Positions 23,889-29,801 of a stretch of 53,795 bases of DNA are shown here, in pieces. This DNA comes from a virus, in UHGV virus genome UHGV-0191815. One strand, 5' to 3'. Position numbers and translations under genes: made by a program. Numbering within the stretch: the first letter of the stretch is position 1; each line of letters starts with the position of its first letter. The notes beneath the pieces were generated by a model. The model ran no database searches. It was not told where the DNA came from and saw only the letters and a list, made by a program, of their open reading frames with translations.

Positions 23889-24616
23889 TGAATCTGGAAT
23901 CAATTCTTAAATTCCACTTCCCAAAATCGCCGCGTTTATCAGATGAAAGCCGTGGTACGTCCCCGGATGCGCTTAATACTACGGATGCACTAACTGCCGC
24001 AGGTATGGCGCAATCGCGCGTAGAGCTTGGTTACAGTGCTTTTTTGGGGAAGATGGAACTATCACAAGCCGAAAAACATAAGGCCGTAGTTTTGCTTATA
24101 GAGCGCTTAAAGGCTATGGCAAAAGATTATGAATACGTTATTGAACTGGACGAGGCAAAACGCAATGATCTCATTATTCTTGTTGCCGTTTTCGCGTTTC
24201 GGGATTATTGCCAGAGTGCAGCGACCGAAAAAGTTTGCCCTAAGTGCGGCGGCAACGGGCTTTTACCAAATCCATATTGCGAATACACATCGACAGTTTG
24301 TTCGCGGTGCGGCGGCAAAGGCTACGTTAAAAACCATTGCCAACGTTGCAAGGGGCGCGGCGAAATACCGGATAAAGCAGCCAGTGAAGCGGCGGAAATG
24401 CCAGTGTTCAAAACGTGCCAGCACTGCGGCGGGCGCGGGTACTCGCGTTTCCCTGTAGATCTTGTCCGGCAGGCTGTTAATCAGCTTGTATTTCCGGTAA
24501 GCCGATCAACATGGTGGAAGAAATACCGCGCTTTCTATGAAGACGCCATTGCTGAGTTGTTCAAAGAAGAGGCGCGGGCTGACAACGAAATAAAACGAGT
24601 GACGCGGGGTGAATAA
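23888..24616 (+). CDS. DnaJ-type zinc-finger protein; possible late-gene regulator (Q-like position)
   Basis: Four CxxCxGxG repeats (CPKCGGNG, CSRCGGKG, CQRCKGRG, CQHCGGRG); located after ninG-rusA where lambdoid phages carry Q; function not established from sequence. Confidence 0.4.
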   Translation: MNLESILKFHFPKSPRLSDESRGTSPDALNTTDALTAAGMAQSRVELGYSAFLGKMELSQAEKHKAVVLLIERLKAMAKDYEYVIELDEAKRNDLIILVAVFAFRDYCQSAATEKVCPKCGGNGLLPNPYCEYTSTVCSRCGGKGYVKNHCQRCKGRGEIPDKAASEAAEMPVFKTCQHCGGRGYSRFPVDLVRQAVNQLVFPVSRSTWWKKYRAFYEDAIAELFKEEARADNEIKRVTRGE

Positions 24617-24816
24617 TGGATAAGCTGGAAATAAACGATCAGTTTGCTGTTATCTTGTTCGAAGATAAAACTGGCGGCGCATGGTGTAAGAAAGTAACTG
24701 GCGCGGAAGCGCGTTTAATATTGGGTATGGCAAGCGCGTTAAATGAAGGCGAATTGCCAGCCATCCCTATTAAGCCTGTCAAAATTTACAAGCGTGGTGA
24801 CGATAATGAAGCCTAA
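24616..24816 (+). CDS. Hypothetical protein (66 aa)
   Basis: ATG overlaps the upstream stop; first gene of the small-gene block. Confidence 0.45.
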   Translation: MDKLEINDQFAVILFEDKTGGAWCKKVTGAEARLILGMASALNEGELPAIPIKPVKIYKRGDDNEA

Positions 24817-25078
24817 ATTAAAAGAACATATTTACCGCCAGTTGATTAACGAGCTTGCGGATACAGCCCGATATTACGCAGGAACACAACAGCTACGCGG
24901 GCGGCTATCTTCGGTTGTTAACCGCTATATTGATGCCGGATGTCATCGCAAAGGTGAAATCACGATGGACGAGGCCATCAAGCGCCGGACGGCTGAATGG
25001 TCAGTGAGTAACACCGGATTAACCGGATACATTGAAGGCTATAACGACTGTTTACAGGATCATAGCGATGGCAAGTAA
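24806..25078 (+). CDS. Hypothetical protein (90 aa)
   Basis: ORF in coupled series. Confidence 0.45.
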   Translation: MKPKLKEHIYRQLINELADTARYYAGTQQLRGRLSSVVNRYIDAGCHRKGEITMDEAIKRRTAEWSVSNTGLTGYIEGYNDCLQDHSDGK

Positions 25079-25373
25079 AGACCTACACTTGAATCTGAAA
25101 GGGGAATATTTCCACGCTATCCGGGCTGGAAAGAAGGTGGAGGAATACCGGCTTTATAATAATTATTGGCGTAAACGCCTGGAAGGGCGTGAATATGAAC
25201 GCCTGATCATTAAATGGGGTTATCCAGCAGGACACGAAGCACACCGGATTATAAACCTGCCTTATTTTGGCTATGAAGTTAAAACTATCACGCATCCATT
25301 ATTCAGCCCTGATCCTGTTAAGGTATTCGCAATTAAATGTGATGTTAATTGGATGCTAAGAGGTGAAAAATGA
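25068..25373 (+). CDS. Possible ASCH/PUA-like domain protein (101 aa)
   Basis: LNLKGEYFHAIRAGKKVEEYRLYNNYWRKRL resembles the ASCH domain N-terminal strand-helix region. Confidence 0.4.
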   Translation: MASKDLHLNLKGEYFHAIRAGKKVEEYRLYNNYWRKRLEGREYERLIIKWGYPAGHEAHRIINLPYFGYEVKTITHPLFSPDPVKVFAIKCDVNWMLRGEK

Positions 25374-25585
25374 AAAGTAACCGTAAGCGCCTTGTAAGGG
25401 CATATGACAAAGCATTAAAGGCTTTTGATGATCTGCGACACAATAAGCGTAAGCGTCGCACATGGGCGCGTATGCTTGTTCGTGAATGGCATTATTCTGA
25501 TGCTTTTATGGAAAGCGCACCGCTATTAACACAAGAACAAGCCGACGAAGTAGCTAACGATAACGTTTATTATATGATGTGGTGA
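25370..25585 (+). CDS. Hypothetical basic protein (71 aa)
   Basis: ORF in coupled series. Confidence 0.45.
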   Translation: MKSNRKRLVRAYDKALKAFDDLRHNKRKRRTWARMLVREWHYSDAFMESAPLLTQEQADEVANDNVYYMMW

Positions 25586-25589
25586 TAAT

Positions 25590-25955
25590 ATGCAAATAAT
25601 CATTGATTATCTATGTCATGCTGTGAATACGCTTTTTGGTTTTTATCAACAACCATTCCTAAAAGAATGGGATGAAATGCTTAACGACATTATTGACAAA
25701 GGGTTAATAGTTGAAGTAGGCGAGCTAACGATAAAATTCAATTACGAAGGAAAGGAATATGAAATATGGGTAGGGAATAGATGGTACTCATACGGGCATA
25801 TTTACTCAATTGGCGGTAAGTACATTAAACGTAGCCAGGAGTTCAGGCCACGATTCCGCACAATGCGCCGCCTGCGTGATCTACATATAGGGATAATTGA
25901 AGACCAGGAAGAGCGCGAACTATTCAAGATCTACGGGGATAAATCATGGAATTAA
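25590..25955 (+). CDS. Hypothetical protein (121 aa)
   Basis: ORF in coupled series. Confidence 0.5.
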   Translation: MQIIIDYLCHAVNTLFGFYQQPFLKEWDEMLNDIIDKGLIVEVGELTIKFNYEGKEYEIWVGNRWYSYGHIYSIGGKYIKRSQEFRPRFRTMRRLRDLHIGIIEDQEERELFKIYGDKSWN

Positions 25956-26176
25956 AAATCTGGCAGGCTATCGACGTTGTTGATAACGAATTGTCTATGT
26001 TCGCCACTAACGGGAAACGCGTTGTGATCGCTACGTGGACACGTAACCATGATGATATTGCTTTCCGTCGCGCGGCGGCGGAATTGCTTTTCGCTGATGG
26101 CGGCTACACGATGAACATCGCACAGCTTGCCAGAATGAAAGATGAAATACTGACTGACAGCTACACAATTGCGTAA
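25946..26176 (+). CDS. Hypothetical protein (76 aa)
   Basis: ORF in coupled series. Confidence 0.45.
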   Translation: MELKIWQAIDVVDNELSMFATNGKRVVIATWTRNHDDIAFRRAAAELLFADGGYTMNIAQLARMKDEILTDSYTIA

Positions 26177-26186
26177 CGGGGTAAAT

Positions 26187-28321: not shown

Positions 28322-28363
28322 AGCGCGGGGCAGGATGGCCCCATCAATAGGAAGGGTTGAATC

Positions 28364-28663
28364 ATGAAAAGCAATAAGTTCATTGCTTGCTGTTTTGTTG
28401 AAGTGCCTAAAGATGATGTTTTCTGTAATTATGAATTTAAAGATAGTTTAGGACGATCTCATGTTGTTGTTGGTAAGCGCGGCGATTGGTTATATATCAC
28501 TGATGGGGACAGGATCTTCACTAAAAACCAGTTGTTAAGAATAAAGGCAGAAAATAATGAAATACCAGTAGGCAACATGGGGATTATGAATTATTACGCT
28601 GGTTTATCGTTAAAGCACGATGCGGTAAATAAAGCGCGTAGCTTACCTGGTGCCGAATTTTAA
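28364..28663 (+). CDS. Hypothetical protein (99 aa)
   Basis: RBS aggaaggg; ORF. Confidence 0.45.
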   Translation: MKSNKFIACCFVEVPKDDVFCNYEFKDSLGRSHVVVGKRGDWLYITDGDRIFTKNQLLRIKAENNEIPVGNMGIMNYYAGLSLKHDAVNKARSLPGAEF

Positions 28664-28686
28664 TTTCTTACGAAGGAGAATAACAA

Positions 28687-29010
28687 ATGTCTAAATTTAT
28701 CAGCGTTAAAGTTTTCCGTGGAACTTTTCCTGAAAATGAAAACAGCGGGCAATTCGCCGGACAGCCTGGCGCATGTTTCCGTGTAGCAACTGATGATGAA
28801 GCTGGCGTCAAATGCTACCACGTATCTGAACCTCCTTTTGACGTGAAAGACCTTGATAATGCAGATCACGTTAAATTTTTTATCTTAGTATCATTGGAAC
28901 TTAATCCATTCCCTGGTGATGAAGTGGAATTGATTGGCGCTGAACTGGTGGCGGAATACAAAATGACTGAAGGGGTAACAGGGGGAATTGACATTGAGCG
29001 CATCAAGTAA
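28687..29010 (+). CDS. Hypothetical protein (107 aa)
   Basis: RBS aaggag; ORF. Confidence 0.5.
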   Translation: MSKFISVKVFRGTFPENENSGQFAGQPGACFRVATDDEAGVKCYHVSEPPFDVKDLDNADHVKFFILVSLELNPFPGDEVELIGAELVAEYKMTEGVTGGIDIERIK

Positions 29011-29248
29011 GCTATACAAGATCAGATGCAAAGGCGAATATCCTGGCTTTACGATTGGTTGCGAATATTTGGGCCGCATGGGGTACGGCCATTTCGGTGA
29101 ATTAGGGATGAATACGCTGGACGATGACGGCGACCGCCGGACGCTTGATCTTGATTCTGACGATTTTGAATACATCCCGCCAGTAACTTATCGCGTGGTT
29201 GATGAGTTCCTGGCTGAACATGAAGACGATGAGGATGATTATGATTGA
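28988..29248 (+). CDS. Hypothetical protein with strongly acidic C-terminus (start uncertain)
   Basis: C-terminal tail EHEDDEDDYD; overlaps the previous gene. Confidence 0.4.
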   Translation: MTLSASSKLYKIRCKGEYPGFTIGCEYLGRMGYGHFGELGMNTLDDDGDRRTLDLDSDDFEYIPPVTYRVVDEFLAEHEDDEDDYD

Positions 29249-29441
29249 ATGCCTTATTGCTGTGATTGTTTTGCTTTATATCGCTGGCGCGATCCTGATG
29301 TCATGTTTTATTAAGGTTAGCGAGGCCGACCGTTGCGGATTTGAGATACCTTTCTGGCCTGTATTGGTTTTCCTCGCTTTCTTCGATGCAACGGTAGTGC
29401 AGATCAAGCTAGCCATTAAGGAGCGCAAAAATGGGAAATAG
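29241..29441 (+). CDS. Small membrane protein (66 aa)
   Basis: MIECLIAVIVLLYIAGAILMSCFIKV...WPVLVFLAFFDATVV; two hydrophobic segments. Confidence 0.45.
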   Translation: MIECLIAVIVLLYIAGAILMSCFIKVSEADRCGFEIPFWPVLVFLAFFDATVVQIKLAIKERKNGK

Positions 29442-29628
29442 CGACCATAAATATGACGGCGTTTATCAGTCATTGCCTTCCCGCGCTTATTATCGCCTTG
29501 AAGGTGAACAAGTGATGATGAGATTAAGCCAGCTTGAGAAGTGGCATGAGCCGTTTTTACCTATGACATCTGCGGAGGTCATTACGATGTTTAATCACGG
29601 ATATTGGCGCAAGGTTGGCGACCTATGA
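29431..29628 (+). CDS. Hypothetical protein (65 aa)
   Basis: ORF in coupled series. Confidence 0.45.
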   Translation: MGNSDHKYDGVYQSLPSRAYYRLEGEQVMMRLSQLEKWHEPFLPMTSAEVITMFNHGYWRKVGDL

Positions 29629-29801
29629 ACGAGATCGAAGATGGCATCTATTTGCATAAGGTATTTGACATCGCCTATTTGGTAAGAGGCGAAGAGGTGA
29701 TGATAAGGAATGAAGATGTTCCTTATTGGGAATTAAGCGACATGGATCGCGAACACATGCAAACATTGTTTGATAACGGACTGATATACAGAACTGCGTA
29801 A
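29625..29801 (+). CDS. Hypothetical protein (58 aa)
   Basis: ATG overlaps the upstream stop (ATGA); last gene before the late promoter. Confidence 0.4.
   Translation: MNEIEDGIYLHKVFDIAYLVRGEEVMIRNEDVPYWELSDMDREHMQTLFDNGLIYRTA

Follow-up and report, generated by a model that had tools for sequence, protein, structure and literature searches.

Between a lambda-type Q gene and the lysis genes of the phage genome UHGV-0191815 (53,795 nt; this whole stretch of DNA is referred to as the window) lies a 5.2-kb block of 21 small genes, o1 to o21 (24616-29801). We propose that this block is the distal part of an N-dependent delayed-early right operon, i.e. a nin-like accessory region that has been moved downstream of Q, and assign this reading a probability of roughly 0.6. 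According to this model, RNA polymerase would begin at the early right promoter, be rendered termination-resistant at nutR1 and nutR2 by Gp17, an N-like protein, transcribe NinF-NinG-RusA-Q and continue without a break into o1-o21, traversing two internal terminator-like hairpins (in o7 and after o13) on its way. Translation of the block would be coupled where stops overlap or closely adjoin starts, with a Shine-Dalgarno motif for each start. Q made from the same transcript would act in trans 5.2 kb downstream, at a PR'-like promoter/pause element that adjoins a terminator upstream of the holin gene, and would open a lysis-first late operon from this distal site. The flexible genes of the block, among them two paralogous families, genes for acidic proteins and one for a small membrane protein, would provide accessory functions of the host-interaction or counter-defence type, and the core genes o5-o10 would have a role in phage development. 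The model is supported by the homology of Q, the overlap of Q and o1, the lack of an internal promoter and a boxA-like motif at 22442. That the block is early is suggested by its position, which corresponds to the Gp17/N-dependent right operon of phage mEp021, for which antitermination by Gp17 and nutR2 has been described (PMC11893012).

Lambda-type Q and a distant candidate late element

The gene directly upstream of the block had been called Q-like in an earlier reading of the letters alone (in the following, the sequence-only reading). Indeed, its product aligned with lambda Q (PDB 7ubm_Q) over the full length, both halves included (phmmer, E 9.9e-39), and matched PF03589 with 108 bits at a cut-off of 26.7; judged by these matches, it is a true lambda-type Q. 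Residues ~115-149 form an additional segment of ~35 residues, a CxxCxGxG (DnaJ-type) zinc finger, and this insertion distinguishes it from lambda Q. Homologues of NinG and RusA were found just upstream of Q by Pfam, and the annotation of mEp021 shows NinF at this place. A terminator hairpin and a boxA-like motif precede these genes (Table 1) at a position that corresponds to the one where t4 and nutR2 have been placed in mEp021 (PMC11893012). From position and motif, this region is probably the t4/nutR2 of an N-like Gp17 antitermination system that would feed NinF-NinG-RusA-Q and the block; no clear boxB was seen by eye at 22357-22450.

Q and o1 share one base (TAATG, 24614-24618), an overlap that had already been noticed, so that there is no intergenic space after Q, and a promoter scan revealed no promoter-like site directly after Q. 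The only PR'-like element of the window is located beyond the block, at 29810-29890 in the 107-nt gap upstream of the holin gene, which agrees with the promoter-terminator pair that had been placed between the block and the lysis genes in the sequence-only reading. The 17-nt spacer of the candidate late promoter holds the invariant sequence AAACAAAYRGAT, and AACAAT is a candidate for a -10-like, putatively sigma-dependent pause element in a layout like that of lambda PR'. From the spacer through the terminator (29821-29890) the sequence was almost invariant across 14 genomes and its flanks were variable; at this sequence level, TAAAAT-N7-AACAAT and the hairpin with its T5 (29833-29890) are conserved in all 14. 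The TAAAAT-N7-AACAAT element occurs once in the window, where no second copy of the late element was found near Q. The late hairpin is annotated as TERM_5 in the mEp021 record and would be identical with 't5', which is given as experimentally demonstrated (PMC11893012). An Rfam scan over 21-32 kb yielded nothing credible. The -35 region of the candidate promoter comes in three types (TTGTGG/TTGTAG, TCGCGC and TTGTAT; 29799-29832 of the window compared with relatives) next to an invariant spacer, -10 and transcribed part, and the mosaicism boundary of the block therefore extends into the promoter.

The distances were compared in 58 genomes, namely the window itself, 13 loci from GenBank/RefSeq and 44 contigs from IMG/VR. 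In this set, the late element never adjoined Q and was located at a median of 5.46 kb (range 1.9-7.2 kb) past the Q stop; in the window, the candidate -35 begins 5.19 kb past the Q stop. The lambda sequence, which was read directly, has the -35 of PR' starting only 44 nt past the Q stop, and the element there has the form TTGACT-17-TAAATT-6-AACGAT. Both phages share a homologous Q, an A/T-rich -10, a -10-like element ~6-7 nt further on and a terminator before the lysis genes, but they differ in the distance between Q and promoter and in the position of the terminator, which lies within ~45 nt of the predicted start here and at 194 nt in lambda. A lambda-type Q that is consistently separated by 2-7 kb from its target, with an accessory array in between, was not found in the literature searched. 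This separation, together with terminators embedded in coding sequence, would represent a naturally occurring departure from the late switch of the textbooks and could reveal how gene order sets timing.

Since PR' lies within ~50 nt of Q in lambda and other textbook lambdoid phages, the block could also be part of the late operon, with a Q-dependent promoter in Q or right behind it, the element upstream of the holin gene being an internal attenuator only; the detection of one block product in virions (PMC11893012) would fit such an arrangement. We regard it as improbable, as the overlap of the Q stop with the o1 start contains no promoter-like site and the only PR'-like -10, pause and terminator of the window are found beside the holin gene, as in the other genomes of the set of 58.

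The block genes and their variation among mEpimmI phages

The window ORF (open reading frame) listing gave an unbroken series of 21 plus-strand ORFs, and after refinement of the starts by Shine-Dalgarno position the products have 46-121 codons, as the sequence-only reading had estimated with its roughly 21 consecutive ORFs. Among the 21 junctions, 11 overlap (1-38 nt), seven have gaps of up to 10 nt and three have larger gaps (23, 42 and 101 nt). Nearly all starts are preceded by GGGG, GAGG, GGAG or GGTG at a distance of 5-9 nt. The ratio of nonsynonymous to synonymous substitutions (dN/dS; pooled Nei-Gojobori, 4-13 orthologues each) was 0.04-0.30 for every ORF, and the same method gave 0.13 for Q, 0.15 for the holin and 0.06 for the lysozyme. 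Matches to PHROG families were obtained for 18 of the 21, all of 'unknown function' except for a weak secondary match of o5 that is annotated as 'membrane protein'. Purifying selection acts on all 21 ORFs, and they are genuine genes. A lack of such selection had been named beforehand as an argument against the block, and this argument fails because all 21 values are between 0.04 and 0.30. Short ORFs without Pfam or NCBIfam assignment, as all of these are, might be open by chance only, in a non-coding spacer, but this view is already refuted by dN/dS and, given the Shine-Dalgarno motifs, the PHROG matches, homologues in unrelated phages and confident AlphaFold2 (AF2) models for both proteins tried, its probability is close to nil.

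A consensus scan of the plus strand within the block revealed no sigma-70-like promoter with a score of at least 10/12, and gene-specific promoter-terminator pairs flanking block genes were not found in the promoter/terminator scan. Two terminator-like hairpins are present. The first is embedded in o7 and showed little or no sequence difference across 14/14 genomes; mEp010 keeps its stem through a compensatory synonymous pair (CGG>CGC with ACC>ACG). A conserved terminator-like hairpin inside core coding sequence was not found in the literature searched. The second, in the gap between o13 and o14, was present in 11 of the 14 genomes (T8 in the mEp010 annotation), and the o14 insertion follows directly 3' of it.

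The nin region of lambda (ninA-ninI, between P and Q) consists of about ten small ORFs of one direction, packed so closely that stops and starts overlap; it belongs to the N-dependent delayed-early PR operon, its internal terminators are overridden by N, for the most part it is dispensable, and its composition is mosaic when lambdoid phages are compared. The block resembles it in its packed, small, co-directional ORFs with coupled junctions and no promoters of their own, in its internal terminator-like hairpins and in the NinF, NinG and RusA homologues upstream of Q. Unlike nin, it is located downstream of Q, is twice as long and contains tandem paralogous families, and none of the 21 products showed homology to a lambda nin protein in Pfam, NCBIfam and PHROG scans. 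Membership in the right operon is suggested by position and by the mEp021 work (PMC11893012).

Variable and horizontally exchanged gene content, a discrete insert (o14) just past a terminator hairpin and one small membrane protein (o19) would also suit morons or lysogenic-conversion genes that are expressed from the repressed prophage for the benefit of the host, e.g. for superinfection exclusion. This explanation has little probability: the genes are without promoter-terminator pairs of their own (o14 does follow a hairpin, but has no promoter-like site), all 21 run in the same direction as the early operon, to which they are linked by translation, the exclusion lipoproteins of the phage group map elsewhere (PMC11893012) and there were no PADLOC matches.

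By its sequence, the genome is that of a temperate coliphage of the mEpimmI group, with mEp010 as the nearest relative found. The block matched mEp010, mEp044, mEp554, mEp013 and MagusPhagus with 87-91% over 55-81% of its length, and matches to mEp021 and mEp515 spanned only 29%; MagusPhagus is mEpimmI-like in the block region, the other named relatives belong to the group. A related prophage block was found in 35 of 5,426 complete E. coli genomes. The mEpimmI phages were described in 2025 as Nus-dependent and 'non-lambdoid' (Negrete-Mendez et al., PMC11893012), with flexible genes, mainly in a 'regulation cluster', amounting to ~49% of the total. The genome described there is of the same type and has the virion protein orthologous to o9, Gp17/nut antitermination and the terminators; an analysis of this block was not found in the passages searched. 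Genome type and variable content are already published, and it is nothing unusual for a phage to have small early genes in dense arrays. Among human gut isolates, mEpimmI phages have been reported to equal lambdoid phages in frequency, and about half of their genes are uncharacterised.

In the 58 genomes, the block comprises 8-28 genes (median 20) of ~48 families, six of which occur in at least 95% of the genomes, 25 are flexible and 17 are confined to a single genome, some of the latter possibly being calling noise. A tblastn comparison detected each of o5-o10 in 57 or 58 of the genomes and o11-o14 in 22-29 only; 15 of the 21 genes are missing from some relatives. A minimal version with eight genes is found in mEp021, which retains o6-o10, o16 and o21. 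Homology to the relatives breaks at 24796-24810, 25361-25376, 26406-26428, 27112-27127, 27326-27339, 27575-27582, 27867/28178, 28662-28668, 29230-29241 and 29611-29621. These breakpoints coincide with gene junctions, and short junction sequences are often common to both sides of an insertion; the genes thus move as single-gene cassettes. Flexible genes had higher dN/dS values (0.2-0.3) than core genes (0.04-0.14). On either side of its conserved core (o5-o10), the block consists of flexible cassettes of one gene each, which were gained, lost or replaced at gene junctions, and a comparison of related prophages, which had been suggested as a check, did show gene content to vary between related phages. 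It is the main variable region of the right arm, and its ~48 small families at one defined, readily deleted site form a natural presence/absence series well suited to screens for anti-defence or host-takeover functions.

Because o5-o10 are core to the phage group, the block is not simply a dispensable accessory set. It might even be mainly a housekeeping module with few accessory insertions, in which o5-o10 and perhaps family B (o20, o21) serve needed functions in development, for example in regulation, in DNA handling or as a protein associated with the virion. This would explain the occurrence of o5-o10 in 57-58 of 58 genomes at low dN/dS, the gene set retained by mEp021, the presence of family B with 1-3 copies in 56 of 58 genomes and the detection of the o9 orthologue in virions by mass spectrometry. 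However, the core products match no known replication, regulatory or structural family, and conservation within one narrow phage group is no proof of essentiality. Furthermore, Ssb was found in the same virion preparation (PMC11893012), and abundant nucleic-acid-binding proteins may, therefore, be contaminants of it. We consider this explanation unlikely as a whole, but it is the only rival that keeps appreciable weight.

Table 1 Features of the Q-to-lysis region of UHGV-0191815. Occurrence is given as number of genomes out of 58.
Feature	Position	Strand	Length (aa)	Occurrence	PHROG	dN/dS	Remarks
Upstream terminator hairpin and boxA-like motif	22357-22450	+					strong hairpin 22357-22392; boxA-like CGCTCTTTA 22442-22450
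Q antiterminator	23888-24616	+	242			0.13	lambda-Q type; PF03589, E 1.8e-31
o1	24616-24816	+	66	flexible, 52/58	phrog_35000	0.07	
o2	24806-25078	+	90	flexible	phrog_29262	0.28	
o3	25068-25373	+	101		phrog_625	0.10	ASCH-like
o4	25370-25585	+	71	flexible	phrog_8758 (C-terminal part)	0.25	basic
o5	25590-25955	+	121	near-core, 57/58	phrog_16975	0.07	
o6	25946-26176	+	76	core, 58/58	phrog_38280	0.13	
o7	26187-26420	+	77	core, 57/58	phrog_30442	0.04	
Terminator-like hairpin in o7	26205-26233	+					AAGCGGG-ATAAAA-CCCGCTT, then U6; dG -19, z -4.2
o8	26417-26644	+	75	core, 58/58	phrog_5009	0.11	GTG start
o9	26649-26897	+	82	core			orthologue of mEp021 gp41
o10	26860-27111	+	83	core, 57/58	phrog_38609	0.14	basic; 38-nt overlap with o9
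Family A (o11-o13)	27114-27797	+					three tandem diverged paralogues
o11	27114-27329	+	71				family A
o12	27339-27578	+	79				family A
o13	27582-27797	+	71				family A
Terminator-like hairpin in o13/o14 gap	27822-27867	+					~17 bp, dG -19.7, then U-run; in 101-nt gap
o14	27899-28171	+	90	flexible, 22/58	phrog_7287		net charge -13
o15	28181-28321	+	46	flexible, 38/58	phrog_22232	0.05	acidic
o16	28364-28663	+	99	flexible	none	0.22	divergent (59-96% identity)
o17	28687-29010	+	107	widespread	phrog_23107	0.30	net charge -9; fast-evolving (44-94% identity)
o18	28994-29248	+	84		phrog_25234	0.14	TTG start (uncertain); net charge -14; acidic C-terminal tail
o19	29241-29441	+	66		phrog_10061		two hydrophobic segments, membrane-like
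Family B (o20-o21)	29431-29801	+			phrog_15318		tandem paralogues at the distal block end
o20	29431-29628	+	65				family B
o21	29625-29801	+	58				family B; net charge -8
Candidate late promoter	29810-29851	+					-35 TTGTGG 29810-29815, 17-nt spacer, -10 TAAAAT 29833-29838, 7 nt, AACAAT 29846-29851
Late terminator	29866-29890	+					hairpin 29866-29884, 7-bp GC stem, then T5; ~20-45 nt 3' of predicted start
Lysis cassette	29909-31059	+					HP1-family holin, lysozyme, Rz-like spanin (Pfam); first late-operon genes

Products of the block and the fold of family A

None of the 21 products gave a match above threshold in Pfam, NCBIfam or PADLOC, and a phmmer search of PDB sequences with all 21 (concatenated) returned no match at E <= 5. 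Known anti-defence or defence proteins were not matched by sequence in PDB, PADLOC or PHROG, a dedicated library of anti-defence hidden Markov models (HMMs) not having been searched; together with the Pfam and NCBIfam results, this agrees with the sequence-only reading, in which no anti-defence function had been identifiable. Its strongly acidic proteins are real (o14, o17, o18 and o21), but of the several small membrane proteins only one is left: o19 is the sole membrane-like product among the 21, with a Kyte-Doolittle maximum of 2.76 (19 residues). The structure prediction and remote homology search that it had recommended led to a predicted fold for o11, described below, but to no sequence-level function for any product.

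Homologues outside the mEpimmI group were looked up in a phage collection, where 120 of 512 matching records were listed; among the matches listed, they were found for four genes, o2, o3, o5 and o14. The N-terminal motif of o2 is common to proteins of the Upf89.5/90.5 region of P1/P7. For o3, the earlier assignment as ASCH-like stands in part. The protein stayed below the Pfam cut-off for ASCH (PF04266; 16 bits, cut-off 21.2, E 0.02, profile positions 1-25 only) and had no NCBIfam match, but it is 47-60% identical to ASCH-annotated proteins of 933W, BTP1, STGO-35-1 and RCS47, and PGAP labels its orthologues as ASCH or RNA-binding proteins (RefSeq annotation). We thus call it ASCH-like on the annotation of its homologues, which, among the matches listed, are located in the ea region of 933W, HK022, 21 and BTP1 and in P1-like and Ralstonia phages. 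Distant homologues of o5 were in Edwardsiella phages. The product of o14 has relatives with 76% amino acid identity in rV5-like virulent myoviruses and weaker ones in T1-like and Vibrio phages (all among the matches listed). Since the identity to the rV5-like proteins is this high, o14 seems to have passed between phages of temperate and virulent lifestyle; its gene is a discrete insertion of ~310 bp (27868-28177) that is missing from many relatives.

The o9 orthologue of mEp021, gp41, was described as a 'mislocated' virion protein after its detection by mass spectrometry (PMC11893012). Comparison of the predicted o9 model with known structures gave no convincing neighbour, and a similarity to RegA that had been suggested in the literature was not reproduced. 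Deep searches with o9 and o14 returned close E. coli or phage relatives only and thus yielded no functional name for either.

Families A (o11-o13) and B are restricted to the block within the window. Family A occurs in 0-5 tandem copies per genome, with at least seven subtypes. The family is very narrow: it forms 73 clusters among 5.8 billion proteins, and all source-named ones come from E. coli or its phages. The AF2 model of o11 (predicted local distance difference test, pLDDT, of 82; alignment of 43 sequences) is a six-stranded all-beta barrel with a long, prominent b1-b2 loop. According to this model, family A resembles Gp54 of phage Bas11 (PDB 9AXB) at the level of fold, and it is not a member of the same family: hmmsearch with the family A profile against PDB gave no match, hhalign gave a probability of 0.2%, Gp54 is assigned to phrog_7421 and family A to phrog_31142 or to none, and an exhaustive HMMER search of 1.84 billion representatives with the profile revealed 28 proteins only and no bridge to Gp54. 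Furthermore, family A differs from Gp54 in its occurrence in a temperate phage and as a tandem array of diverged copies. Such a tandem family with the Gp54 fold in temperate phages was not found in the literature searched; the link would carry a rare fold, solved only recently, from virulent T1-like phages into temperate ones, as multi-copy arrays.

Gp54 has been described as a small, non-essential protein of unknown function with a very rare fold that directly activates CapRel(SJ46) (Zhang et al., Nature 2024, PMC11578894), a toxin-antitoxin defence system, and its authors speculated that it may inhibit another defence system (PMC11578894). By analogy with the binding of CapRel by this structural counterpart, family A would most likely bind host proteins. 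In a Foldseek search of viral models, this fold recurred in many small proteins that are uncharacterised; they belong to enterobacterial phages of the T1-like, rV5-like and T4-like types, and one genome often encodes several of them. In Bas11, gp54 is located in a run of small hypothetical genes (gp51-gp54, 13019-13981), and several T1-like phages have two to three proteins with the predicted Gp54 fold, some of them fused into proteins of 100-270 aa. Since Gp54 lies in such a run and proteins of this fold are multiple or fused in T1-like phages, the models suggest that small beta-barrel proteins of phages form a broad superfamily, as yet unnamed.

Possible accessory, core and counter-defence functions

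Accessory regions of enterobacterial phages can hold anti-defence genes, an example being the early region of T7 with Ocr. The block is like such regions in that its small genes, of variable content, are flanked by conserved ones, in its enrichment in acidic proteins and orphans and in having members in unrelated phages, but unlike them in that none of its members matches a known anti-defence protein. A role in anti-defence or host takeover is a plausible hypothesis, with the likeness of the family A fold to Gp54 as its sole functional lead. A stronger version, unlikely but worth entertaining, would make the block a dedicated counter-defence island whose position ensures its expression ahead of the late structural proteins, by which many immune sensors are alerted: the tandem, rapidly diversifying paralogues of family A, family B and the acidic proteins would each neutralise or decoy a different sensor, and the terminators in o7 and after o13 would grade dosage under control of N. 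If true, this would be considerably more interesting than an accessory array.

The reading as a nin-like, delayed-early accessory region downstream of Q has points against it, too. Early timing, N-dependence and distal action of Q are deduced from sequence and from the work on mEp021. The -35 of the candidate late promoter is weak as well as variable, and the generic promoter scan, which depends on the consensus, did not flag the promoter because of this weakness. The near-constant presence of o5-o10 and the detection of o9 in virions favour a developmental or structural role over a dispensable accessory one. Finally, a sequence relationship between family A and Gp54 was not detectable, and their link is, therefore, at fold level only.

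Further observations concern single products. Resemblance by eye had made o16 and o18 candidates for family A; they were rejected, as hhalign gave a probability of only 8%. Among relatives, o9 occurs in forms of 82 and 71 aa, the difference being an indel close to the 3' end of the gene, where o10 starts (26850-26897), and the C-terminal extension of the longer form was modelled with low confidence. The family A profile also matched very long repeat proteins, e.g. one of 3,288 aa with 24 matched stretches; these matches look spurious and probably reflect convergence on a beta-hairpin repeat motif (DDxGxxW).

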